64,000 nt of DNA from an uncultured Candidatus Saccharibacteria bacterium (GCA_964529025.1 CAZGUZ010000004.1:4805-68804), one strand, 5' to 3'; counted from the first letter of the stretch, positions 820-52,105 are shown. Notes: generated from the letters alone by a model not told the origin. Numbers and translations: made by a program.

Positions 820-1480
820 GCGCGCACTGGGCGGGTGGGGCAAGCACAAAGAGTTACCACGAACACCGCCGAAGCCACAGAGCGAACACGAAGCAACACC
901 GAGCAGGCATCGTGAGCGGAGCGAGCGACCAGTGAGAGGTGCTTGCGAAGTGCTTGCGAAGTGTGAGCGGACTACCGAACTACCACAGAACGCGGAGACG
1001 GGAGCGCCTCGGGCCGACGCAAACGACGGAGAAAAGGCGGGCGTAAAACTGGCAAAAATGCTAAACTACACTTATAAGCCTTTTTGGAGGAGTGAAGCGG
1101 CGGCGGCAAAACCAAAAATTTCCTTCCTTTCAAATGTTCCGCTTCGCGGCGGGGGGTGTGGGGGGAGCCGCAAATAAAAATGATAGGAAATTTTTGGGTT
1201 TTGCCCCGCGCGAGCTTGTCGAGCGCGGCCGAGGCGCAAGTATCATTCGTCAAAATCCTGCGGATTTTGCCCGAAATACATTCGAACTTCGTCCAATACA
1301 CACCGCAATGATCAGAGAAGACGGCTTAATGCCGTCTGAGCTGAGCATTAACGCGCGAGAAAGTGAGATTCGAAAGCCGGAGCGCGACGGCGCGAGGCGG
1401 GGTCGCAGGCCGAACCAGTAGGTGAGGACCTGTGACCGAATCTCCCTCTCTCCGCCGTGACAATAAAGTATCAGAGTTTA
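820..1480. repeat. GC-rich non-coding region holding two copies (E0 about 880-1000; E1 about 1340-1480) of a repeated GC-rich element family
   Basis: No protein-like ORF on either strand; GC far above flanks. E1 shares gtgagattcgaaagccggagcgcgacRgcgcgaggcgggg...gtgaccRaatc with the copy at 2195-2300. E0 (gagcggagcgagcgaccagtgagaggtgcttgcgaag) resembles the copy after tRNA-Tyr at about 36060-36110. Confidence 0.5.
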
Positions 1481-1547
1481 CCTGTGTGCTTATGTAGGCA
1501 GTCTGACCCGAATACTTAAATATAGTGACCTAGGCTATAATGAACCT

Positions 1548-2057
1548 ATGAACAAGAATATAATTATTACCGTTCAAGCATTGGCACTTTGTTTTGTTGG
1601 GTACTTCATATTTCAAAATACACAAAACTCTGTTAATGCAAATCTAACTCAAGTCGGCGGTATTGATTGGAATAAGCCCTTTGAAAAGAATCTTGCGCTA
1701 GAGGATATCTATAATAAATCGGATAAAACCATCTCACATCATACTCTTTGTATACCTGTTAAAAAATTTCACTGCGATGCTAGTTCTTGCGAAAGTACTG
1801 ATCCTAAAGTTTTTAATTTAATTAGTGGTAATAGAGAGAATCTTATTGTTTCTCGTTGTGATGCTAACGGGTGTGATACCTATAAGTCAGTTTTTAATGA
1901 TTCGGGTGAGTATAAAAATATTCAACCTATAGATCCAAAGGGATTTTTATTCAAAATGTCCTACAATACTGTCGACAAAAAATTTATAGAGATTACAACT
2001 CTTGGGCTAGATACTTTTGTATCATATGGTTATTGTTTATATAAAAAAGAATTTTGA
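1548..2057 (+). CDS. hypothetical secreted/membrane-anchored Cys-containing protein
   Basis: Hydrophobic N-terminus (IIITVQALALCFVGYFIF), several Cys, AT-rich codon usage; tataat directly upstream. Confidence 0.45.
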   Translation: MNKNIIITVQALALCFVGYFIFQNTQNSVNANLTQVGGIDWNKPFEKNLALEDIYNKSDKTISHHTLCIPVKKFHCDASSCESTDPKVFNLISGNRENLIVSRCDANGCDTYKSVFNDSGEYKNIQPIDPKGFLFKMSYNTVDKKFIEITTLGLDTFVSYGYCLYKKEF

Positions 2058-2194
2058 ACAAATAATAATCTTGATCCACGTGCCTCATATTGGATAGTTT
2101 AAACATGCTAAGATAATCTTACAAAGATTAAGAAATTTGGTGCTTAAACCACATGGCCTGCAACAACTGCTCGAATCGAGCACGTCTCAGCGGG

Positions 2195-2300
2195 AGTAGG
2201 TGTTAAATACGAGAAGGTGAGATTCGAAAGCCGGAGCGCGACAGCGCGAGGCGGGGCCGCGGGCGAATGCACCAGCGCAAGGCTCGTGACCAAATCCTCC
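2195..2300. repeat. copy E2 of the GC-rich repeated element
   Basis: gagaaggtgagattcgaaagccggagcgcgacagcgcgaggcggggccgc...cgtgaccaaatcctcctct is nearly identical over about 60 nt to 1355-1420 and shares the gtgaccRaatc tail. Confidence 0.5.
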
Positions 2301-22116: not shown

Positions 22117-22170
22117 AGAGGTTGTGGATAGTTAATAAAATTATACATGTATATGTGGCATAATATATAC

Positions 22171-22818
22171 ATGAAAACTTTAATTTTCCCTCGGTATATT
22201 TTTACAATTTTTGCTGGTGTAGTAGCATTTATTCCTTCGGTAAGTTTTGCCGCAAATAAAACACTGAGCGATCTTACATCTCTTTTGGGTTCGTATATGC
22301 AACAAGCCATATATCTTATTATGGCTTTTGCTGTTTTAACATTCGTTTGGGGAATTTATAATTATTACCTTAAGCCCGATGCTGATAGGGGTGAAGCAAT
22401 GAATTATGTTCTGTACGGTACTATTGGCTTCTTTCTCATGTTGTCATTCTGGGGCTTGGTAAATATTATTAAGAATACACTTGATCTTGATAATACTGCA
22501 CCAAGTATCCCAGTTATTCAGTCATTACAGTTTAGATCGGGTACTCCTGGGGTTGGTTCAGGCGGTGGAACATCTGGAGTTGGTTCTGGTGGGGGTACTT
22601 CCGGTGTAGGGTCAGGGAGTTCAAATTATGTGGCACCACTTCCAAACGGCTCAACTATTAATCCTGTAACCGGACAAGGCTCAGGCGGTGGTACTCCCGG
22701 ACAAGGTTCAGGTGGTGGTACTTCTGGACAAGGCTCAGGTGGAGTGCAAGGTGGAGTGGATTATACACCACCTGCGACTGGACCACTTGATTCGGGTGAT
22801 CAGCAAATCAACTCCTAG
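22171..22818 (+). CDS. VirB2/TrbC-like pilin family protein (paralog 3) with Gly/Ser-rich repetitive C-terminal tail
   Basis: Same N-terminal architecture; tail GVGSGGGTSGVGSGGGTSGVGSGSS...GQGSGGGTPGQGSGGGTSGQGSGG encoded by DNA tandem repeats. Confidence 0.5.
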   Translation: MKTLIFPRYIFTIFAGVVAFIPSVSFAANKTLSDLTSLLGSYMQQAIYLIMAFAVLTFVWGIYNYYLKPDADRGEAMNYVLYGTIGFFLMLSFWGLVNIIKNTLDLDNTAPSIPVIQSLQFRSGTPGVGSGGGTSGVGSGGGTSGVGSGSSNYVAPLPNGSTINPVTGQGSGGGTPGQGSGGGTSGQGSGGVQGGVDYTPPATGPLDSGDQQINS

Positions 22819-22830
22819 TCTATCCCTATA

Positions 22831-23325
22831 ATGAAAACATCACTTAGTGCCATTGTTCTCGGTGTCCTTGCAGCAGTTCCTTCATTTGCTCATGCTCAGA
22901 CGCTCACAACTCTTCAGGGAGTTATTGATTATGCAGCTCGACTTGGTAATGCTATTGTTCCGATCGTTATTTCTATCGGTGTTATCTACCTCGTTATTAA
23001 TATCGTACGATGGTTTATCATTGAACCAGGTGAAGAGCGAACAGCAGCACTTTACCAGGTTCTTTGGGCAGTTCTCGGTCTTTTCCTCATCTTGTCTATC
23101 TGGGGTCTTGTGAACATTCTTCGAAATTCATTCCAAACAAATCGATCAGCTCCTACAACTGAGTTCCCAACAGTGTTTGTGCCAAATATTGGTGGCGGTG
23201 GAACAACAAGGGGATCAAGTCCTTCACCAGTATCGGGGGGTAATAGTAATTTGCAAGGAGCTGTTGATTTTACTCCCACGCAAAATAATCCACTCAATTC
23301 AGGTAATCAGCTCCTTGATTCATAG
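22831..23325 (+). CDS. VirB2/TrbC-like pilin family protein (paralog 4) with Gly-rich tail
   Basis: Signal peptide MKTSLSAIVLGVLAAVPSFAHA plus helical hairpin; first 354 nt identical to the next gene. Confidence 0.55.
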   Translation: MKTSLSAIVLGVLAAVPSFAHAQTLTTLQGVIDYAARLGNAIVPIVISIGVIYLVINIVRWFIIEPGEERTAALYQVLWAVLGLFLILSIWGLVNILRNSFQTNRSAPTTEFPTVFVPNIGGGGTTRGSSPSPVSGGNSNLQGAVDFTPTQNNPLNSGNQLLDS

Positions 23326-23397: not shown

Positions 23398-23760
23398 ATG
23401 AAAACATCACTTAGTGCCATTGTTCTCGGTGTCCTTGCAGCAGTTCCTTCATTTGCTCATGCTCAGACGCTCACAACTCTTCAGGGAGTTATTGATTATG
23501 CAGCTCGACTTGGTAATGCTATTGTTCCGATCGTTATTTCTATCGGTGTTATCTACCTCGTTATTAATATCGTACGATGGTTTATCATTGAACCAGGTGA
23601 AGAGCGAACAGCAGCACTTTACCAGGTTCTTTGGGCAGTTCTCGGTCTTTTCCTCATCTTGTCTATCTGGGGTCTTGTGAACATTCTTCGAAATTCATTC
23701 CAAACAAATCGATCAGCTCCTACAACTGAGTTCCCAACAGTGTTTGTGCCACGAATTTAA
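23398..23760 (+). CDS. truncated duplicate of paralog 4 (lacks Gly-rich tail)
   Basis: 100% nucleotide identity with 22831-23184 over 354 bp, then diverges into VPRI-stop. Confidence 0.45.
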   Translation: MKTSLSAIVLGVLAAVPSFAHAQTLTTLQGVIDYAARLGNAIVPIVISIGVIYLVINIVRWFIIEPGEERTAALYQVLWAVLGLFLILSIWGLVNILRNSFQTNRSAPTTEFPTVFVPRI

Positions 23761-23767
23761 TACAACT

Positions 23768-24076
23768 ATGAATTTAGGAGTTTTGATTGTGCATGCAGCA
23801 GCAAGCGACGAAGCTCTTAAAAAGGTGGATGCATATATTTCGGTTGTTGCAACAAATATATTAAATCCAATTATTGCTCTAGGTTTTGTAGCTGCAACAC
23901 TCCTCTTTGTTTGGGGAGTGTTTAGCTATATGAGGGGAGCTGCTGATTCTTCGGCTCGGGCAGATGGTGCACGCCATGTTTTGTGGGGTGTCATTGGTAT
24001 GGCAATTATGGTTTCTGTATATGGAATAATTAACTTTATTTCTGCGACAATGGTGAGTGTATTGGAAAAGCAGTAG
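23768..24076 (+). CDS. VirB2/TrbC-like pilin family protein (paralog 6)
   Basis: Helical-hairpin small membrane protein with the same Lx3WGxxNI-like pattern. Confidence 0.45.
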   Translation: MNLGVLIVHAAASDEALKKVDAYISVVATNILNPIIALGFVAATLLFVWGVFSYMRGAADSSARADGARHVLWGVIGMAIMVSVYGIINFISATMVSVLEKQ

Positions 24077-24094
24077 TAATAACTGATGATTTTG

Positions 24095-24160
24095 GCAAAA
24101 GAATAACCGCGCTTTATGGGCGCGGTATTTTGCTGGCCGAGTGACACGAGGTCACTCGGG
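24095..24160. terminator. two adjacent hairpins (ccgcgctttatgggcgcgg; ccgagtgacacgaggtcactcgg) between convergent transcription units
   Basis: Perfect inverted repeats; they mark the boundary between the AT-rich pilin array and the GC-rich island. Confidence 0.5.
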
Positions 24161-24673
24161 CAGTTTCTCGATCCAAATTGTCGATGCCGTTTGCACGGGC
24201 GACGACTGGTCGATCCAACACTCGAGGTATGTGGCAGGCGGGTAGTGAACCCGCTTGCTGCGGTCTCCGGGTTTGGCCCGGAGCTCGAGGTTTTCGTTTG
24301 AGTCTACATCATAGATGTAGCGACGGCTCATGTAGCCGTCCACCTGGATTACGAGCCTGAGGCCCGAGCCCAGGTGCTTCTGGTCAACCGAGAGCTTGAA
24401 GTTTACAACTCCCGGCTTAATGACGGTCGGTTGCCCGACTGAGAGCGGGTACACCGTCACGGTGTACTGCCGCTCATCGCGCTCCGTCTGACGGAATGCG
24501 ACGGTGGCGGCTTCGGCCTGGGATTCCTTGCGGATTCCCGAAACCCAAGCAGTGAGGGGCTCCTTGAGAGCTGATATGATGAGTAGTCCGACGATAATCG
24601 TCACCACCCACCGAATGATACCTACGATCTTCTTTGACGGATCGTTGGCACCTTCTTTTTTCTTGTCTGCCAT
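24152..24673 (-). CDS. hypothetical membrane-anchored protein (GC-rich island gene C; possibly NfeD-like beta-domain partner)
   Basis: N-terminal TM IIRWVVTIIVGLLIISAL then a soluble beta-rich domain; GC about 57%, unlike the host. Confidence 0.45.
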   Translation of the reverse strand: MADKKKEGANDPSKKIVGIIRWVVTIIVGLLIISALKEPLTAWVSGIRKESQAEAATVAFRQTERDERQYTVTVYPLSVGQPTVIKPGVVNFKLSVDQKHLGSGLRLVIQVDGYMSRRYIYDVDSNENLELRAKPGDRSKRVHYPPATYLECWIDQSSPVQTASTIWIEKLPE

Positions 24674-24677
24674 AGCT

Positions 24678-25745
24678 TTACGGGGTTCCTTGGTTCATGT
24701 TGACACCAGCAGGATTCAGGTCGAATGCCCGAACAACATCAGCGATTTGCTCAGGTGAACAGCCAGTTCTTGTCATGGAGGCAATGAGCGCATCGCGCCT
24801 AGCCGCATCGTCAGCTGCTGCATTCGCAAGTGACCGCCTTTGTTCGGTGAGTCTCCTCTCCATCGCTTCATCTTCTGAAGCGGTAGTGAGTGCTAGGCTA
24901 ACAATCTTGAATCTTCCCACAGCGATGCCAAGCTCAATTTGCTTAGGATCAAGTACGGTTTTCTCCCCGTAGCTGAGTTCAAGATGAGCAAGTGCCGCAG
25001 CTTGTCCAGTAGCCCCCTGAACACTGTCAGGGGTCTTCTGGGCAAACCACTGCCTCATGTAGTTGAGCACATGAAGGCGCACCTGTTCTTCGAGGTCTGG
25101 GTAACCTTTGCATTCTCCACTGAAGAATCGCTTAGCGGTGATTCCTGCAAGAGGTCGTATGACTTGGTACTGCAAAGAGAACTCCGCACTAGCAGTTCTC
25201 TGTACGAGGGTTGTTGACCCTGAGTCGGGAAGAGGTGCGGGCATAAGTGGAAATTGATCCTTAAGAACCAGCACCCTTGGCCCCACCTTGAACTTGGTTG
25301 CCACGGTTACCCATGGCGGCTTGACTGTGACAGTGACGGGCATGAACGCTCCATCTATCACTACTGGTGGACCCGTGTAGGACATAACCTTTGTCGGGTC
25401 ATCGTCTTCGATTTCCGGTATATCGAATCCCTTAAGCTCAACTGGGAAGTTAATGCCAAAAGGGTTCTGAAGTACCAGAATTTCATCTGCTTCGGGCACA
25501 ATGAGGTGCTTTCCGATGAAGAAGAAAGTTGAAATCAAAGTGACGGCCGTGAAGGATTTTGCCCCACACTTCCACCCTGAGAATCCAATAATCTCCCCCA
25601 TGGTGTTGAAGACGAATACTGCTAGCGCAGCCACAATGAGTGATGCGACTAGCGAGAGTCCTACATACCCTAGTGGGGTAGACAGGCGGTAGCCCCATTT
25701 CTGCTTGAAGCTTGCTCCCTGAGTTCTAGCTATTAATGTTGACAT
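24678..25745 (-). CDS. hypothetical membrane protein, possibly SPFH/band-7-like (GC-rich island gene B)
   Basis: Two N-terminal TM segments, a central mixed domain, and a C-terminal Ala/Arg-rich coiled coil (ERRLTEQRRSLANAAADDAARRDALIASM) reminiscent of SPFH proteins. Confidence 0.4.
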   Translation of the reverse strand: MSTLIARTQGASFKQKWGYRLSTPLGYVGLSLVASLIVAALAVFVFNTMGEIIGFSGWKCGAKSFTAVTLISTFFFIGKHLIVPEADEILVLQNPFGINFPVELKGFDIPEIEDDDPTKVMSYTGPPVVIDGAFMPVTVTVKPPWVTVATKFKVGPRVLVLKDQFPLMPAPLPDSGSTTLVQRTASAEFSLQYQVIRPLAGITAKRFFSGECKGYPDLEEQVRLHVLNYMRQWFAQKTPDSVQGATGQAAALAHLELSYGEKTVLDPKQIELGIAVGRFKIVSLALTTASEDEAMERRLTEQRRSLANAAADDAARRDALIASMTRTGCSPEQIADVVRAFDLNPAGVNMNQGTP

Positions 25746-25837
25746 GTAATGAACTTACCATTTGTTGAATGGCACCTTTCTGTATATATATTACAATATA
25801 AAATATAGAATGTCAAATATGTTAAATTATGAAAATT

Positions 25838-25866
25838 AGACAAAAGGAAAGGCGCGCCGCAAGCGG
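25838..25866. terminator. 22-nt perfect palindrome ggcgcgccgcaagcggcgcgcc with T/A runs on both sides (bidirectional terminator)
   Basis: Read directly; lies just 3' of the 25900-26601 gene. Confidence 0.55.
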
Positions 25867-25899
25867 CGCGCCGATTTTGTTGTACTACTGCCCGCACCG

Positions 25900-26601
25900 T
25901 TATTCCGGCGTGAACAGGACGATCCGAGGATCGTTACCGTCGTTCGAGATCTCAAACCTCCTGACGGGCATAGGTTTCTTCTGCCACTCGGCAAAAGGGA
26001 TTGTGCCACCGGTTTCAAGGAGGACGTTGATGACAACCCCTGGATCGGGGTCGATGTTGAATCTTACTCGATTACTGATCGTCACGGTGGCGACCTCGCC
26101 ACCGAGGAGTGAGATCGAGCCAACCTGGCTCGAGGTTGTCCAGACATACTCGAGTTGGGGCACCTTAACCTTCCTCTGCGCCTTTTCAGGCTCAGAATAT
26201 GTGCGTTCTGCACGTACCGACCCCGTTGGAGGACGGACGAGAGTAGAGCGCTCAAGGTGATGGTTCTCGTTGTCCAACTGGTCCTCCAACGCAGCGAGTT
26301 TCTTTCGAAGCTCCGCAGCGTCGCGGATTGCCGTGTCACGCGAATGTTCAATTCTCGAGACGTGGTTGGTGAGTTCGCGAATGCGGGCTTCCGAACCGCT
26401 TTCGACATCGTGCCGTCGAGGAGTTGTTGGCGAGTTCGTTGCACCGGCCGTGGTGGCCGCAGTTCGCTTCTCAGCAACCAACTGCCCCCCAAGCCAGTGC
26501 CGAACACTCGGCACGAAGAGGAGGGCGCAGGCCGTGATGATCACGAGCTTGAACCAATGAGCTTTGACGAATTTCCAAATAGCTGCCCAAATTGCTGTCA
26601 T
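25900..26601 (-). CDS. hypothetical single-pass membrane protein with coiled coil (GC-rich island gene A)
   Basis: TM LVIITACALLFVP, coiled-coil RIRELTNHVSRIEHSRDTAIRDAAELRKKLAALEDQL, C-terminal beta-rich domain; GC-rich. Confidence 0.45.
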   Translation of the reverse strand: MTAIWAAIWKFVKAHWFKLVIITACALLFVPSVRHWLGGQLVAEKRTAATTAGATNSPTTPRRHDVESGSEARIRELTNHVSRIEHSRDTAIRDAAELRKKLAALEDQLDNENHHLERSTLVRPPTGSVRAERTYSEPEKAQRKVKVPQLEYVWTTSSQVGSISLLGGEVATVTISNRVRFNIDPDPGVVINVLLETGGTIPFAEWQKKPMPVRRFEISNDGNDPRIVLFTPE

Positions 26602-26787
26602 GATTCCTTTCTGCCCGTACCTTCATGGTACGAGATCTGTTAATATCTTATCATACTTAAGCAGCAATGTCAATAGCTTGAGGTAACGTATTTAATATGA
26701 GAATCCTGCTGTTCTTTTTGCTATAAAATCTATGGTGTTAAAAAGAGTGCAGAAAAAACCGCAAATGCGGTTTAAATAATGTTAAAT

Positions 26788-26872
26788 TGGTGCTGGAGGG
26801 GAGACTCGAACTCCCACGGGTTACCCCGCTTGCTCCTAAGGCAAGTGCGTATACCAATTCCGCCACCCCAGC
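26788..26872 (-). tRNA. tRNA-Leu (anticodon TAG), CCA encoded
   Basis: Reverse complement GCTGGGGTGGCGGAATTGGTA...CTTGCCTTAGGAGCAAG...GGGAGTTCGAGTCTCCCCTCCAGCACCA; long variable arm. Confidence 0.85.
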
Positions 26873-26876
26873 AATG

Positions 26877-26949
26877 TGCTCCCAGTAGGATTCGAACCTA
26901 CGACCAATCGCTTAAGAGGCGAGTGCTCTACCAACTGAGCTATAGGAGC
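26877..26949 (-). tRNA. tRNA-Lys (anticodon CTT)
   Basis: Reverse complement GCTCCTATAGCTCAGTTGGTAGAGCACTCGCCTCTTAAGCGATTGGTCGTAGGTTCGAATCCTACTGGGAGCA. Confidence 0.85.
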
Positions 26950-26999
26950 TTGATAGAAAATATACCTTAAAACTTGATTTTGAGCAATGCTTGAGTGAC

Positions 27000-27140
27000 T
27001 GTGCTAGGGGAATTGAATGGGTGAATCGGTCACGCGTTAAAATTGCTACACAATTTTACGCTCGACCCCGCCTCCTGTGCACCGGTTCGCTACGCTCACA
27101 TCGGTGCTACAGTCCGGCTTTCGATTCCCGCCTCGGGCAC
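27000..27140 (-). repeat. copy E3 of the GC-rich repeated element, between tRNA-Leu(TAA) and tRNA-Lys on the tRNA strand
   Basis: Read on the minus strand: gtgcccgaggcgggaatcgaa-AGCCGGA-ctgtagcaccgatgtgagcgtagcgaaccggtgcacaggaggcggggtcgagcg...cgtgaccgattcaccc. The first 20 nt are a perfect inverted copy of the 3' end of tRNA-Leu(TAA). Confidence 0.5.
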
Positions 27141-27173
27141 TTAAATAAGCGCTTTCGCGCTTATAAAATACTG

Positions 27174-27255
27174 TGCCCGAGGCGGGAATCGAACCCGCAC
27201 GCCGTGAGGCCGCCGATTTTAAGTCGACTACGTATACCAGTTCCGTCACTCGGGC
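27174..27255 (-). tRNA. tRNA-Leu (anticodon TAA)
   Basis: Reverse complement GCCCGAGTGACGGAACTGGTATACGTAGTCGACTTAAAATCGGC...GCGGGTTCGATTCCCGCCTCGGGCA; long variable arm. Confidence 0.8.
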
Positions 27256-35922: not shown

Positions 35923-36008
35923 GCGCAGGTGGTAGAGTGGTCAATTACAACAGACTGTAAATCTGTCGCCTTCGGGCTACGGGGGTTCAAATCCCTCCCT
36001 GCGCACCA
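35923..36008 (+). tRNA. tRNA-Tyr (anticodon GTA), CCA encoded
   Basis: GCGCAGGTGGTAGAGTGGTCAATTACAACAGACTGTAAATCTGTCGCCTTCGGGCTACGGGGGTTCAAATCCCTCCCTGCGCACCA. Confidence 0.85.
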
Positions 36009-36012
36009 ATTA

Positions 36013-36036
36013 AAAAACCGCCCCAAGGCGGTTTTT
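36013..36036 (+). terminator. terminator hairpin aaaaaccgccccaaggcggttttt
   Basis: Stem accgcc/ggcggt with a T-run, directly after tRNA-Tyr. Confidence 0.6.
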
Positions 36037-36037
36037 A

Positions 36038-36210
36038 AGTGCGCAGGGAGGGATTTGAAAGACGGAACGAGCGCAGGCGAGCGAGTCGGGTGAGAATGTG
36101 TAGCATTCGCAAGACTCATTGAGCTCGAGTACTCGAGGGCCAATGAGTGGACAGACCCTGTAAGGGTCGCAGAAACTTTCAGCAGAAAATTATCTGTGAC
36201 CAAATCCTTG
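36038..36210 (+). repeat. copy E4 of the GC-rich repeated element; first 21 nt are a perfect inverted copy of the tRNA-Tyr 3' end
   Basis: gtgcgcagggagggatttgaa-AGACGGA-acgagcgcaggcgagcgagtcgggtgagaatgtgtagcattcgcaag...ctgtgaccaaatcc. The reverse complement of nt 36038-36058 equals ttcaaatccctccctgcgcac of the tRNA. Confidence 0.5.
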
Positions 36211-36248
36211 CATTTAAGCATGCGGCGGTATATTCTCTAGCAAGAATG

Positions 36249-48823: not shown

Positions 48824-50101
48824 CTAGGGAACTCGAATTCGCTTGAGGAGAGGTGAAATATGCACTGCAATATCGTAACTTAGTGTCTTTGCTTCACGAG
48901 CAATTGAATAGAGAGAGTTCTGGTGCATAAAATCTTCTCCGCTCATGACACAAACTTCATCACCTTCTTTAATAATCATAATTTGCGAAGCTAAAGTAAT
49001 ATCAATTGCAGTAATGTTCATGCTTACTCTTCCAATGATTGGGCAATAGATTTCATTAATACGAACGTTGCCATTATTAGATAATGCTCGAGGAATACCT
49101 TCGTTGTATCCAAGGGGGATTAGGGCAATTAAGCGGTCGCGCGGAGCAATGTATGTCATATTGTAACCGACACTTTCTCCAGCTTTTACTTTTTTTATAC
49201 CATAGAGCTTTGCATATACAGACATAACTAATTTAAGAGGAACAATGTCGTCGACAGTTGCACCAATGGTAAGGCCAAACATACCACCGCCAATACGTAC
49301 AACATTGGCATGTGCTTGATTTGCATAATAGGTTCCACCTGTATTACTGATATGTGTGTATTTGAGTTGCGGAGCAAAAGGCGAGAGTTCTTGTACTGCA
49401 TTATTCCATGTCGTGATTTGTTCGAGAGATTTTGTAGGATCAGCAGAATCAGAATCTGCAAAGTGTGAAGCAAAACCGTGGACGTGTATTTTTGCCTTCG
49501 GACAGACTTCCAAAAGTTCTTTGAGATCAGTAAATTCGTTCGGCTTTATGCCTTGTCGATTCATTCCTGTATCAATTTTGATGTGAATAGAAACAGGTAC
49601 GGGCTCGAATACTCGAGTTGGTTCGCCTTTGTACTCAATGCGGTACTTAATGAGGTCGCGGAAATGATCCATACTTGAAATCATGTATGAACAATGCGGA
49701 ATACTGTCATAGTGTATGGTGCGTGCCTCGGTGTAGCCGGCAATAAGGATAGGGAGGTGTGTGCTTTGTGCGCGCAAAGCTTGTGCTTCAAAAAAAGAAT
49801 CAACAACAAAGAATGGGATTTTGTCGGCAAAATTCTCGGTGAGAATTTGCGCAACAAGGGTTGCACCATGCCCGTATGCATTGCTTTTGAGTACAGGAGC
49901 AATTTTGAGCGGTTTGTCCGCCTGCGCTAAAAGTGCTGACCACGCAGAAAAATTGTGCTTAAGGGCAGATTCAGAAATGCGTACGGTAATAAGGGGAGGA
50001 AACTTGCCAGCTCGTGCCGAGCGCAGTTTATAAAATATTTGTCGCAAGTTACGACCTACGGTGTACAACCAATGTGTTATAAAAAACGGCATTTTATACA
50101 T
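48824..50101 (-). CDS. alr: alanine racemase with about 35-aa N-terminal extension encoded inside a tandem repeat
   Basis: PLP-Lys motif APVLKSNAYGHG. The ORF continues to 50200, but the first in-frame Met codons (MYKMPFF) lie at about 50101/50092. Confidence 0.75.
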   Translation of the reverse strand: MYKMPFFITHWLYTVGRNLRQIFYKLRSARAGKFPPLITVRISESALKHNFSAWSALLAQADKPLKIAPVLKSNAYGHGATLVAQILTENFADKIPFFVVDSFFEAQALRAQSTHLPILIAGYTEARTIHYDSIPHCSYMISSMDHFRDLIKYRIEYKGEPTRVFEPVPVSIHIKIDTGMNRQGIKPNEFTDLKELLEVCPKAKIHVHGFASHFADSDSADPTKSLEQITTWNNAVQELSPFAPQLKYTHISNTGGTYYANQAHANVVRIGGGMFGLTIGATVDDIVPLKLVMSVYAKLYGIKKVKAGESVGYNMTYIAPRDRLIALIPLGYNEGIPRALSNNGNVRINEIYCPIIGRVSMNITAIDITLASQIMIIKEGDEVCVMSGEDFMHQNSLYSIAREAKTLSYDIAVHISPLLKRIRVP

Positions 50102-50391
50102 AGAGAGAGTATACAAGAAGTGGGGGGATGTTGCTATTGATGTGTGGGGTTTTAGTGTTGGCAGGTTAGGGTATTGTGAGGGGATCGAGCTACCCACCAC
50201 GTGCCGAACGTAGTTTATAAAATATTTGTCGCAAGTTACGACCTACGGTGTACAACCAATGTGTTATAAAAAACGGCATTTTATACATAGAGAGAGTATA
50301 CAAGAAGTGGGGGGATGTTGCTATTGATGTGTGGGGTTTTAGTGTTGGCAGGTTAGGGTATTGTGAGGGGATCGAGCTACCCACCACGTGC
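50010..50391. repeat. 187-bp tandem direct duplication (two units, 2 mismatches) covering the alr 5' end/promoter; a third partial copy of about 40 nt at about 51120-51160
   Basis: Unit gtgccgaRcgYagtttataaaatatttgtcgcaag...gatcgagctacccaccac occurs at 50014-50200 and 50201-50387. The motif cattttataYatagagaRWKYatacaagaaKg recurs at about 51120-51160. Confidence 0.8.
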
Positions 50392-52032: not shown

Positions 52033-52105
52033 GGGCGATTAGTTAAGTGGTATAACTACGGTCTCCAAAACCGTTGTCGGGGGTTCGATTCCCTCATCGC
52101 CCGCA
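52033..52105 (+). tRNA. tRNA-Trp (anticodon CCA)
   Basis: GGGCGATTAGTTAAGTGGTATAACTACGGTCTCCAAAACCGTTGTCGGGGGTTCGATTCCCTCATCGCCCG. Confidence 0.8.

Follow-up and report, generated by a model that had tools for sequence, protein, structure and literature searches.

The window, a stretch of 64 kb of Candidatus Saccharibacteria DNA, carries between positions 820 and 2300 two blocks with near-identical, GC-rich segments, which raises the question whether these represent a structured RNA, a miniature mobile element or a recombination hotspot. The repeat described in the initial annotation is real, whereas several of the details attached to it did not hold. A direct repeat of 94 nt with 79% identity (1356-1449 versus 2210-2303) bears out the near-identical segments in the two blocks, and the motifs TYGAAAGVCGGA and GTGACCRAWTC co-occur in the same order exactly four times in the window, at approximately 1370/1432, 2224/2286, 27124/27033 (minus strand) and 36055/36196. 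Likewise, a covariance model built from relatives yielded exactly four copies, E1 (1353-1456), E2 (2210-2308) and E4 (36039-36218) on the plus strand and, on the other strand, E3 (27140-27011). Their E-values range between 2e-27 and 1e-9, and no further match in the window falls below E = 0.02. Both motifs and the model thereby match at 27000-27140 and 36038-36210, where the same architecture had been proposed, and with a GC content of 0.56-0.62 compared to ~0.41 for the window the elements are indeed rich in GC. A fifth piece postulated at about 880-1000 neither matches the model nor shows BLAST similarity to the copies. Moreover, the description of the block 820-1480 as free of ORFs is loose, since mechanical ORFs of 110-119 aa overlap it; nothing suggests that they are genes.

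A structured module at the 3′-flank of tRNA and tmRNA genes

The four window copies are class 1 of a superfamily of non-coding modules of ~100-200 nt that reside at the 3′-flank of tRNA and tmRNA genes in Patescibacteria (CPR). Relatives were found in Saccharibacteria, Paceibacterota/Parcubacteria and WWE3, and also in Elusimicrobia. The order of the module is the 3′-part of the tRNA from C56 to N73 (A), a trailer or terminator hairpin, often in the form of a conserved hairpin P0, a segment A′ that is the Watson-Crick complement of A, the core, and a tail in which A recurs as a direct copy. The same order of parts is common to at least four unrelated cores.

E1 to E4 adopt one common fold with a three-way junction (GAAAG / P2 / GG / P3 ending with GUGAC), which is supported by the covariation of 125 relatives. 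When 25 copies were aligned with MAFFT without regard to structure, compensatory changes were apparent at 19 of the 28 pairs. Among the 125 copies, 93% of the cells are paired and double changes occur in 25 of the 28 pairs; none of 500 shuffles reached the observed values, and slid controls were paired to 36-44%. One pair of the core is G-U in 119 of the 125 copies, while another is found as GC (46), GU (45) or AU (24), and on the opposite strand the G-U pairs would become C-A mismatches. As the conserved G-U pairs are present on one strand only, selection acts on the single-stranded tRNA-sense form, which is most simply RNA. The unpaired nucleotides of the junction are invariant across phylum-level distances. 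Taken together, of the structured-RNA option of the initial annotation, a structured nucleic acid is strongly supported by the covariation, the strand-specific G-U pairs included. By eye, no consistent covariation of the conserved P0 loop (AACUGCUU) with P3 was observed that would indicate a pseudoknot.

The statement that the repeats match no known RNA family likewise holds against Rfam 15, which returned only tRNAs for the whole window at the gathering score and nothing relevant for 780-2340 at E ≤ 10. For 12 orphan loci and eight loci with other core classes (2, 3 and 5), Rfam identified only tRNA and tmRNA. A tmRNA, RNase P, 6S or SRP RNA in the block 820-1355 was rejected, as neither ARAGORN nor Rfam gave a match. 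A tmRNA-like start (GGGGAC) with an 'AND...' frame, noticed by eye in the same block, was discarded for lack of a matching 3′-end.

Direct and inverted copies of tRNA 3′-ends

The organising principle, namely that tRNA and tmRNA 3′-ends are present in direct and inverted copy, had been missed in the initial annotation, including the fact that in E3 and E4 the initial 21 nt are perfectly complementary, in reverse, to the 3′-end of the tRNA located 32 nt upstream. In the case of E4, tRNA-Tyr(gta) (35923-36008, plus strand; ARAGORN and Rfam) is followed by a 32-nt trailer with the terminator-like hairpin AAAAAACCGCC-CCAA-GGCGGUUUUU (36007-36038) and by the 5′-arm A′ GTGCGCAGGGAGGGATTTGAA (36039-36059), both apparent from inverted repeat I16. 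This A′ is complementary to T54 to C74 of tRNA-Tyr over all 21 nt. It reads GAGGG, whereas the 5′-strand of the T-stem, which contains a G-U pair at this site, reads GGGGG; A′ was therefore copied from the 3′-strand of the tRNA. The class-1 core of E4 (36060-36200; 38-48 bits in cmsearch) is degenerate, with a large insertion, an altered P2 and an intact P3, and folds with z = -3.1. In L204, a relative with an identical tRNA-Tyr, ~145 nt of an E4-type core are lost. Of the tail CAAATCCTTGCATTTAAG (36201-36218), 7-8 nt still match the tRNA.

E3 is organised in the same manner on the minus strand. Here, tRNA-Leu(taa) (27173-27255; ARAGORN and Rfam) and the element are separated by a trailer of 32 nt with the terminator-like hairpin AUAAGCGC-GAAA-GCGCUUAU (27141-27172), and A′ GTGCCCGAGGCGGGAATCGAA (27120-27140; inverted repeat I14, 100% complementary) is the perfect 21-nt reverse complement of T54 to C74 of tRNA-Leu. 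P2 of the class-1 core (27029-27119; 51-58 bits) is extended by 30 nt and contains a compensatory change relative to the 85%-identical relative L022, and the fold has a z-score of -3.95. In L022, the inverted repeat coincides with a gap of Ns. The first 6-7 nt of the tail CGATTCACCCATTCAATT (27011-27028) are all that still matches the tRNA.

For E1, the sequence reveals an upstream hairpin AGACGGC-TTAAT-GCCGTCT (1319-1337) in the position of the trailer/P0 hairpin of the relatives. Its 5′-arm A′ GCGCGAGAAAGTGAGATTC (1353-1371) pairs with the tail CGAATCTCCCTCTCTCCG(CC) (1437-1456) in an interrupted closing helix of 17 bp. This tail is shaped like the 3′-end of a tRNA of the Ser type, running from C56 to G73 with CC added; A′ resembles the complement of a tRNA-Ser 3′-end and is, by eye, similar to the A′ that is present in L097 in the element linked to tRNA-Ser(tga). 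The class-1 core (1372-1436; 93.6 bits, E = 2e-27) comprises GAAAG, a P2 built of GCC/GGC, a GA.GA internal loop and a GCGC-GACG-GCGC hairpin, GG, and P3 (GGUCGC...GUGAC), and the minimum free energy of E1 is -58.3 kcal/mol (z = -4.9). No tRNA was detected upstream, neither within 780-2340 at E ≤ 10 nor on contig L121, which extends the upstream sequence by 3.2 kb, and E1 is therefore an orphan copy. For the same reason, we rejected the idea that E1 is preceded by a tRNA-Ser that is split or by a tRNA that contains an intron. The arm of E2, CGAGAAGGTGAGATTC (2210-2225), is of the same lineage as that of E1, the class-1 core (2226-2290) scores 72.6 bits (E = 1e-20), and the tail CAAATCCTCCTCTTTAGT (2291-2308) is a decayed copy of the tRNA-Ser-like 3′-end of E1 with mismatches in P1; as a single sequence E2 folds weakly (z = -1.2).

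Upstream of E1, a second conserved and probably structured segment (1096-1250, plus strand) matches, at 77% identity across 146 nt, the sequence that precedes an orphan class-1 element on the Harrisonbacteria contig L041. It forms a long hairpin with three compensatory pairs and has no match in Rfam; whether it belongs to the element is uncertain.

Among the 125 copies, 94 are located at most 120 nt downstream of a tRNA gene on the same strand, representing at least 32 anticodons, or of a tmRNA gene, the latter in two cases. In all 94 the gene called by ARAGORN and Rfam is complete; orphan copies without any tRNA exist as well. The left boundary of the direct repeat is exactly C56 in all 55 scored loci. 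From there the tail repeats the tRNA up to about N73, with an identity of ~0.9 in the T-loop part and ~0.65 through N73 and +1, which drops to the random level (0.3) by +3, and the 18-nt direct repeat is perfect in 40 of 85 copies. A downstream copy of the 3′-end within 1.5 kb was found for 81 of 194 tRNAs, compared to one in the upstream control. CPR tRNA genes are generally followed by CA or CC, and the bases +1 to +3 of the tails are the same as those of tRNA genes, which lends no support to a retro-origin from CCA-tailed mature tRNA.

The inverted copy is perfect over 20-21 nt in E3, E4 and L090. In most copies A′ spans only positions 57-63/65, and beyond position 65 complementarity is near random. 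Where the two copies of A differ, the better fit to A′ is the upstream tRNA in 30 cases and the tail in 7. Pairing of A′ is also more stable with the upstream copy in 54 cases against 6, a comparison that is confounded by the neighbouring trailer hairpin, which takes part in this pairing.

Origin of the modules

To what extent the modules come and go can be followed at 108 orthologous tRNA-Tyr loci, 74 of which were scored empty and ~34 occupied. As the empty class was defined by motif criteria only and at least four of its members (L222, L228, L204 and L180) carry an element or a remnant on inspection, the number of true empty sites is nearer 70. The occupied loci contain cores of class 1, 2/4, 3 or 5 in the same layout, some of them in tandem or partially deleted; a partial deletion is also present in L204. 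The trailer-P0 module termX is shared by six loci scored as filled and by L228, which looks filled, and is absent from the other loci scored as empty. The filled locus L234 and the empty locus L126 have flanking tRNA genes in common. No truly isogenic pair of an empty and a filled site is present among the loci compared, and insertion is therefore indistinguishable from ancestral presence followed by frequent loss. A strain-level comparison by exact-protein look-ups yielded only short contigs of the same strain; the short contigs L122-L124 end within about 550 nt of window copies.

Tandem or serial copies occur in L005 and L004. In L050, L112, L137 and L153 a proximal element is followed by a distal one, and in L050 and L112 it is the distal tail that is decayed. 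In L090 the remnant GTGACCGAATCC lies behind an intact copy. In addition, arrays of element-ORF-element-ORF in one orientation are found in the window (E1-ORF169-E2-ORF185) and in L086, with one A common to each array; their cargo ORFs are AT-rich and without assigned function. L021 is one possible case of a 1.1-kb cargo. Most units lack an ORF, and their median length is 154 nt.

Given the direct repeats of tRNA 3′-ends, the polymorphism in presence and class of the elements and the serial arrays, the miniature non-autonomous mobile element considered in the initial annotation is the reading best supported overall. We put the probability at roughly 0.45, hence somewhat below an even chance, that the modules are non-autonomous, site-specific insertion elements that target the T-loop of tRNA genes and restore the gene. 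On this reading, a unit consisting of A, the trailer hairpin, A′ and the core would be inserted into the T-loop of tRNA or tmRNA genes, in the interval from about 55/56 to 60/61. As the unit would bring its own replacement 3′-end, the tRNA would stay intact, and the original 3′-end would be pushed downstream as the tail, where it could decay. Repeated insertion would leave several copies in tandem or in series, some of them separated by a small gene (E1-ORF-E2-ORF). The unit alone may fold into a rod, in which A pairs with A′ under a hairpin cap, joined to the three-way junction; for two such rods -92 and -89 kcal/mol are predicted (z = -7 and -11). The enzymes would have to act in trans. We infer that insertion rather than local duplication creates the layout, and likewise which copy of A is the incoming one, that the RNA form matters, and whatever is said here about the enzymes of insertion.

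Several observations count against mobility. All-against-all clustering of ORFs did not reveal any integrase, transposase or reverse transcriptase that recurs within 4 kb of 51 copies and yielded housekeeping families only, and Pfam searches of the ORFs near the window copies identified no recombinase and nothing mobile. The elements are absent from viral contigs: a pattern scan of 2.9 million gave no more than one chance match of 15.7 bits, and a phage origin was rejected on these grounds. The invariance of the junction across phyla is unusual for a parasitic element without a protein, and the rewriting of A and A′ for more than 32 tRNAs lacks an explanation. Moreover, the integrity of the core helices does not correlate with that of the tail (rho = -0.07), and the prediction that both should be preserved together was thereby rejected. 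Judged by eye in L090, the copies of one genome show no particular similarity to each other, and there is thus no sign of a recent burst. Finally, at least five further contigs of Saccharibacteria (L031, L070, L076, L101 and L091) have a clpB homologue next to a tRNA-Tyr gene that carries an element, which could reflect long vertical retention under host-level selection.

Next in probability, and unlikely in our view, is a tRNA-mimicking non-coding RNA that derives from the tRNA trailer and is kept by the host as useful. A read-through RNA would form a closing helix equivalent to the acceptor and T-stem of the neighbouring tRNA, ending at the discriminator base, with the T-loop replaced by the three-way junction, and could serve as decoy, as substrate of processing enzymes (RNase P, RNase Z, CCA-adding enzyme) or as partner of a factor that recognises the acceptor/T-arm. 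The immediate adjacency to the tRNA on its own strand, the RNA-type covariation with junction nucleotides invariant across phyla, and the lack of a mobility gene nearby are all in line with such a function. The contiguous A′ of E3, E4 and L090 gives a complete minihelix of 19-21 bp, and members of the P0 subfamily contain, just 5′ of P0, a strand of 7 nt complementary to the acceptor part of the tail, which permits a cloverleaf-like fold; its spacing is 27-28 nt in 10 loci, and the 7-mer is perfect in 23 of 106 cases versus 7 of 106 in the shuffled control. The acceptor part of the tail is also ~65% identical to the tRNA, while the trailer beyond +3 is random. What disfavours the mimic is that most copies lack an acceptor helix, because A′ covers only 57-63/65. 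In E3, E4 and L038, terminator-like hairpins with U-tracts intervene between tRNA and element. In addition, ~70% of the orthologous tRNA-Tyr genes have no element and the remainder carry unrelated cores, which is hard to fit with one conserved host function. Some lineages show decayed or deleted tails and cores, and orphan copies have no tRNA at all.

Less likely still is a mobile agent at the RNA level, a viroid-sized (~150 nt) rod-plus-junction RNA in which A′ would be a re-writable guide to the T-loop and 3′-half of a given tRNA and the core, belonging to one of several unrelated classes, would catalyse or recruit cleavage and ligation at 55/56. If this were true, the element would be an intron-like insertion that never needs splicing and carries a spare 3′-exon, and thus a new protein-less, RNA-guided insertion element, possibly comprising several new ribozyme classes.

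We consider it improbable that the module is a cis-acting three-strand RNA switch, in which A′ would pair either with the 3′-half of the tRNA, thereby unfolding or blocking it, or with the tail, thereby closing the three-way junction, and a ligand or protein at the junction would select the helix and thus the level of tRNA maturation, different cores being different sensors. The succession of A, A′, an aptamer-like core and A is a design of mutually exclusive helices on one platform common to several core classes with invariant unpaired junction nucleotides, and all three strands retain the inner part 57-63 despite decay of the outer parts, e.g. in E3 and E4. In several loci, pairing of A and A′ also reaches into the tRNA trailer, which would act as a toehold (e.g. 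the CAATGATC/GATCATTG type, and L049), and the rod is predicted to be very stable. Against this, folding of the tRNA precedes transcription of A′, the usual A′ of 7-9 nt makes for a weak competing helix, and terminators precede some of the elements. The direct repeat retains the acceptor part also where pairing with A′ is impossible, most tRNA-Tyr orthologues lack the element, and orphan copies have nothing to regulate. To our knowledge, a riboswitch located 3′ of its target is without precedent, which likewise counts against a switch.

We further doubt, and rate as more improbable yet, that recombination occurs at the DNA level in the manner of an integron, with the folded strand A′-core-A corresponding to attC, the T-loop to attI and the units to cassettes moved by a tyrosine recombinase encoded elsewhere in the genome. 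Such a system would account for the one-orientation element-ORF arrays with a common A (E1/E2, L086), their AT-rich cargo ORFs without assigned function, the tandem units and a strand-specific, imperfect inverted repeat that closes a variable structure. The consensus contains no R/L-box or GTTRRRY core, its conserved ends being GAAAG and GUGACC, and no integrase was found beside any array among the part of the window proteins scanned. The retained G-U pairs (G-T in DNA) and the GC/GU/AU pattern are typical of RNA and not of folded DNA, and most units, at the median length given above, have no ORF.

The distances from the end of the tail to the next start are 92 nt (E1), 34 nt (E2) and 28 nt (E4), and E3 is followed after 62 nt by tRNA-Lys instead of a protein gene; -10-like hexamers are visible by eye after the window copies, although a consensus promoter scan called none. 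The earlier description of a gene start with a tataat box 60-80 nt behind each copy is therefore only roughly right. The position after tRNAs is shared by the relatives, as stated above, whereas the position before small secreted genes is not general: a hydrophobic N-terminus is predicted for only 22 of 94 downstream ORFs, and the neighbours of the relatives' copies are mostly housekeeping genes. The next gene lies within 28-92 nt of each window copy, and the genes behind E1 and the two copies of L086 encode small proteins that are membrane-anchored or secreted. A role in regulating the gene that follows, as leader, riboswitch or promoter-associated element, is nevertheless highly improbable, as the genes downstream of the conserved core are unrelated (pilin, pseudouridine synthase, ParB, and a tRNA after E3), the upstream tRNA is the only constant neighbour, and the elements of the window would lie outside the downstream mRNAs, given that the -10-like boxes are located after the element.

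Taken together, the modules are a previously uncatalogued element family that is widespread in ultra-small (CPR) bacteria, and they behave like tiny mobile insertions. CPR genomes comprise ~1 Mb, and every 150 nt should count. If mobile, the elements would be the smallest tRNA-gene-targeting elements we are aware of, which without a protein gene have nevertheless reached tmRNA and the majority of tRNA species throughout the Candidate Phyla Radiation. This would raise the questions of which enzyme or RNA activity inserts them at the T-loop, how the target-matching arm is rewritten for each tRNA and whether tRNA supply is affected. If they are host RNAs instead, they would constitute a new class of tRNA-linked regulator or tRNA mimic. 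In either case, at least four structured-RNA families not yet catalogued become available to Rfam-type annotation, the elements may account for the assembly breaks that recur beside CPR tRNA genes, and they provide natural markers of strain-level variation in CPR genomes.

Comparison with known systems

A full-text search of the literature, including motif strings, did not retrieve a description of the element family. Integration into tRNA and tmRNA genes follows sublocation preferences, including a class with crossover in the T-loop, as reportedly described by Williams in NAR in 2002. The ssrA islands of Dehalococcoides provide a comparison case for islands that integrate into tRNA and tmRNA genes (PMC3146451). 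As in genomic islands and prophages mobilised by tyrosine integrases, a direct repeat of the 3′-segment of the gene, starting in the T-loop, brackets the insert, the tRNA remains intact, tmRNA genes are used as well, and successive insertions stack behind the gene. Occupied and empty alleles likewise exist at one site, although for tRNA-Tyr no near-isogenic pair was found. Unlike such islands, the element measures ~150 nt and not kilobases, has neither an own nor a nearby integrase, and contains an inverted copy of the target (A′) and an RNA-type three-way junction; moreover, the same core occurs on more than 32 different tRNAs.

With integron cassettes and their attC sites the modules share a small, strand-specific structured site closed by an imperfect inverted repeat and arrays in one orientation with short ORFs of no assigned function. 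No intI, attI or Pc platform was seen beside any array among the part of the window proteins scanned. In contrast to integron cassettes, the elements are tied to tRNA 3′-ends, and they terminate with ...TC-GAAAG and GUGACC-GA, without R″-L″...L′-R′ boxes in the consensus alignments. In addition, the conserved G-U pairs point to RNA, and most units are empty. MITEs, REP/BIME and Correia elements are likewise short, non-coding, multi-copy, intergenic, foldable and GC-rich relative to the genome. In contrast to MITE and REP elements, the A′... and ...GUGAC ends are not inverted repeats of each other, short target-site duplications are absent, and the modules combine strict specificity for the tRNA T-loop with cross-phylum covariation and a flanking repeat of 18-21 nt or more of the target gene.

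A subset resembles tRNA-like structures (viral TLS, mascRNA, the tmRNA domain) in the stacking of acceptor and T-stem up to the discriminator base and in the possible use of tRNA-processing enzymes. This 12-bp stack is present in E3, E4, L090 and the P0 subfamily and missing in most copies; in contrast to tRNA-like structures, the T-loop is replaced by a three-way junction and the stems are literal copies of the neighbouring tRNA. Finally, the group I introns that Patescibacteria carry within tRNA genes reside in the same phylum and are likewise selfish structured RNAs in tRNA genes without a homing endonuclease, in which a guide-like segment pairs with the flanking tRNA sequence. These introns are located in the anticodon loop (35/36 among others), interrupt the gene, require splicing and match the group I models of Rfam, whereas the element described here is much smaller, matches no Rfam model and follows a complete tRNA.

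Class-1 copies in the window and their relatives

The GC content of the window is ~41%, and a repeat search yielded a 94-nt direct repeat (D5; 1356-1449 and 2210-2303, 79% identity). The initial annotation had proposed a recurring family of GC-rich elements, and four copies were borne out by the motifs TYGAAAGVCGGA and GTGACCRAWTC, which have four exact matches each in constant order and orientation, at ~1370/1432, 2224/2286, 27124/27033 (minus strand) and 36055/36196. These class-1 copies are termed E1 (1353-1456), E2 (2210-2308), E3 (27140-27011, minus strand) and E4 (36039-36218). The covariance model R1, trained on relatives from other genomes, gave bit scores of 93.6, 72.6, 51-58 and 38-48 for the four copies and, with filters off, no further match below E = 0.02 in the 64 kb. 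Neither R1 nor BLAST supported the fifth piece placed at 880-1000. The distance to the next gene, put at 60-80 nt, was measured as 92 (E1), 34 (E2) and 28 nt (E4); the feature following E3 is a tRNA, 62 nt away. The -10-like boxes ascribed to these gene starts are discernible by eye and were not called by a consensus scan.

When one genome per GTDB species was scanned with an exact pattern, at least 119 loci were obtained, and the matches listed derive mostly from Patescibacteria (CPR), comprising Saccharibacteria, Paceibacterota/Parcubacteria and WWE3, and from a few Elusimicrobia. R1 detected at least 125 copies in the window and 99 of the scanned loci, often with two to four within one 8-kb locus. 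Matches in GC-rich genomes, e.g., Streptomyces, do not form the closing helix P1 and look like chance. When 2.9 million viral contigs were scanned with the same pattern, one chance match emerged. No Rfam 15 family matches any class-1 copy, and a full-text literature search for the family found no description; it is uncatalogued in the databases and literature searched.

Other features of the window were noted as well. The segment 820-1095 is purine-rich (60% GC), contains a short tandem GTGCTTGCGAA (two copies) and starts with GGGGAC directly after a terminator-like inverted repeat and a TATAAT hexamer; it includes GCAAACGACGG, recalling the start of a tmRNA tag, and ARAGORN and Rfam detect no tmRNA there. 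A second conserved stretch, 1096-1250, contains a long interrupted hairpin (GAAGCGGCGG...CCGAGGCGC) and has 77% identity over 146 nt to sequence preceding an orphan class-1 element in a Harrisonbacteria contig (L041). It has no Rfam match and could represent a further class of element or an RNA of unassigned type. A 300-nt direct repeat with 100% identity (22831-23130 and 23398-23697, 567 nt apart) spans the starts of the adjacent ORFs 22831-23325 and 23398-23760, and a degenerate GGTTCAGGYGGTGGWAC-type repeat (22528-22739) comprises three overlapping or nearby 62-nt copies (D4) over ORF 22147-22818. At 49992-50365, within a region of raised GC and strong GC skew, a 187-nt unit is tandemly duplicated at 95% identity. 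A GC-rich block (24000-27000; 0.49-0.53 versus 0.41) adjoins E3; two of its ORFs, 24152-24673 and 24678-25745, were compared with Pfam and gave no match.

tRNA-matching arms and core classes

The initial 21 nt of E3 and E4 match in reverse complement, without a mismatch, the 3′-end of the adjoining upstream tRNA from T54 to C74; this tRNA, tRNA-Leu(taa) for E3 and tRNA-Tyr for E4, lies on the same strand as the element. The inverted arms are 32 nt apart in both copies, the spacer being a terminator-like hairpin (I14, I16). The E4 arm reads GAGGG, whereas the T-stem 5′-strand of tRNA-Tyr, which contains a G-U pair at this position, reads GGGGG; thus, the arm is a templated complement of the 3′-strand rather than a copy of the 5′-strand. 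Among the matches listed, 94 of 125 copies begin within 120 nt of the end of an upstream tRNA on the same strand, with at least 32 anticodons represented, and two apparent orphans actually sit behind tmRNA genes.

In every scored case, the sequence after GUGAC, here termed the tail, copies the neighbouring tRNA from exactly C56. Its identity to the 3′-part of the tRNA gene itself (A, from C56 to about N73) is ~0.9 in the T-loop part and 0.65-0.75 from the T stem through the acceptor strand and N73 to +1, and has dropped to 0.3, the random level, by +3; a perfect 18-nt repeat is present in 40 of 85 copies. The unit from C56 to C56 has a median length of 154 nt (range 67-215 nt).

For all four window copies, folding predicts a common three-way junction. 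P1 is followed by single-stranded GAAA(G), by P2 (GCC/GGC, a GGA/GA internal loop and a short hairpin tolerating insertions), by a GG linker, by P3 (GGUCG...YGUGACC with a variable tip) and by GA returning into P1. Covariation within the family is strong. A structure-blind MAFFT alignment of 25 copies revealed compensatory changes at 19 of 28 pairs. In a 125-copy alignment, which was fitted to R1 and is therefore biased towards the structure, 93% of cells are paired and double changes occur at 25 of 28 pairs; none of 500 shuffles matched the observed values, and shifted partners were 36-44% paired. Folded in silico as circles, the E3 and E4 units are predicted to form a 19-bp rod with a hairpin cap plus P2 and P3, with energies of -89 and -92 kcal/mol (z = -11 and -7).

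tRNAs without an R1 match are often followed by an inverted T-loop/T-stem copy, a different sequence and a direct copy of the 3′-end. The layout tRNA, terminator, optional hairpin P0, 5′-arm complementary to A (A′), core and tail recurs in at least three other core families, namely class 2/4 (GAAARGCUUUUC...GAAAAG...GGURUACUG-hairpin-AGAAAUU), class 3 (GAACRGGAAAGGGGUCGGGAAAAC...) and class 5 (GAACCGNNGG...), none of which is in Rfam. Among 194 tRNAs at CPR loci, a sample skewed to occupied loci, 81 have a direct N59-N73 copy within 1.5 kb downstream versus one in the upstream control; 65 of the 81 carry a class-1 core and 16 another core. A mini-hairpin of ~13 nt (consensus GTGTACTCAC) follows CGA(T) in the tail copy only of L004, L049, L027 and L050; three of these four class-1 elements lie behind tRNA-Trp, and the hairpin resembles the GGUGUACUG motif of class-2 cores.

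Stacking and turnover behind tRNA genes

Elements also occur in series. The unit is present twice in L005, A-trailer-P0-A′ is repeated on either side of one core in L004, and L050, L112, L137 and L153 each have a distal element behind a proximal one, the distal tail being more decayed in L050 and L112. A remnant (GTGACCGAATCC) lies behind an intact copy in L090. E1 and the more decayed, distal E2 have a common tRNA-Ser-like A and A′; between them lies an AT-rich ORF of 169 aa without assigned function. No tRNA was found upstream of them at E <= 10, nor on a contig extending 1.7 kb past the window start. L086 is arranged likewise, with a tRNA-Asp-like A. In L021 a tail matches a tRNA-Arg(tct) located 1.1 kb upstream; one ORF and two tRNAs intervene.

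A less biased sample was obtained by scanning metagenome contigs with the 36-nt body of the window's tRNA-Tyr. Of 108 usable loci, 74 were scored empty by motif criteria and ~34 occupied, by class 4 (10), class 2 (7-8), class 1 (6-7), class 5 (2-3) and class 3 (1), sometimes in series. On inspection, at least four of the 'empty' loci (L222, L228, L204, L180) hold an element or remnant, so true empty sites number nearer 70. The trailer-P0 module termX occurs in six loci scored filled and in L228, which looks filled on inspection, across five tRNA-Tyr variants; it is absent from all other scored-empty loci. L234 (class 3) and L126 (empty) have tRNA-Tyr and the next tRNA genes in common and differ by ~150 nt. 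Over the 60 nt aligned, the tRNA-Tyr 3′-portion of L204 is identical to that of the window; this locus lacks ~145 nt (terminator, A′, P2) and retains P3 and the tail start, so the E4 lineage is decaying.

In four scored-empty loci (L135, L136, L177, L162), native terminator hairpins reach 3-6 bp into the acceptor 3′-end (e.g., GGCGCA...TGCGCC). This brief inverted stretch of the tRNA end is present without any element and may have seeded the A′ arm. The window's tRNA-Trp (52033-52104) lacks an element and is 95% identical to a tRNA-Trp with a class-1 element in L049 (3215-3430); the flanks are non-syntenic, and thus this is not a clean empty/filled pair. An assembly gap (a run of N, L022:2000-2080) coincides exactly with the inverted repeat that lies between the E3 orthologue and tRNA-Leu, and short contigs of the window's strain (L122-L124) end within ~550 nt of window copies; the elements may break CPR assemblies.

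Proposed insertion elements and alternative readings

Unrelated cores at one site together with many element-free orthologues point to repeated gain and loss over one conserved host function. On these grounds, and on the integration footprint described below, we favour, at a probability of roughly 45%, non-autonomous insertion elements. The mobile unit would consist of A, trailer hairpin, A′ and core, the tail being the displaced original 3′-end, because the arms of E3, E4 and L090 fit the upstream tRNA perfectly while the tail has decayed, because 30 of 37 informative loci have an A′ closer to the upstream copy than to the tail (with the caveat that the tail decays and the tRNA is constrained), and because termX travels with the elements. 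However, this reading leaves unaccounted for the absence of any enzyme, the rewriting of A and A′ per tRNA, the phylum-wide invariance of junction nucleotides and the uncorrelated integrity of core and tail. ORFs within 4 kb of 51 copies comprise only housekeeping clusters, e.g., MiaA, L19, RluA, ClpB, ParB and TrxB, and the proteins encoded beside the window copies are IF-2, cysteine desulfurase, DsbA, peroxiredoxin and a photolyase-related protein.

Because of what the favoured reading leaves unaccounted for, three rivals stay in play. The first, a tRNA-mimic RNA derived from the trailer, is a minority option. In the P0 subfamily (loop AACUGCUU), a 7-nt acceptor-strand complement just 5′ of P0 gives a cloverleaf-like outline. 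In the P0 hairpins of L023, L024, L038, L057, L069, L117, L130, L182 and others, the stem covaries, but core classes 1, 2 and 4 and different phyla have the loop (C)AACUGCUU(G) in common, which suggests a shared recognition site or tertiary contact. A three-strand switch, in which A′ would toggle between the tRNA 3′-half and the tail, is improbable; A′ is complementary at positions 57-63 in 71-94% of copies and barely above chance at 66-73, so that P1 usually has 7-9 bp, the full 20-21-nt arm being the exception (E3, E4, L090). Slightly less probable still is an integron-like folded-DNA site. Of the 125 copies, 119 have G-U at one P3 pair, and a second pair is GC in 46, GU in 45 and AU in 24, a pattern that restricts the fold to the tRNA-sense strand; such one-strand folding is the usual signature of an RNA, with a folded DNA strand as the alternative. 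A leader for the downstream gene is very unlikely, and the downstream genes of relatives have no common theme.

A small probability attaches to a categorically new, protein-less T-loop insertion element that is RNA-guided or ribozyme-driven. The classical footprint of site-specific integration into tRNA and tmRNA genes, reportedly set out by Williams in 2002, comprises a direct repeat of the 3′-segment of the gene starting in the T-loop, an intact upstream gene, use of tmRNA, stacked copies and empty sites. The elements described here resemble tRNA/tmRNA-targeting integrative elements in each of these respects, but differ from them in four defining respects: in their size, in that no integrase was seen, in the inverted, guide-like arm and in the conserved fold of RNA type.
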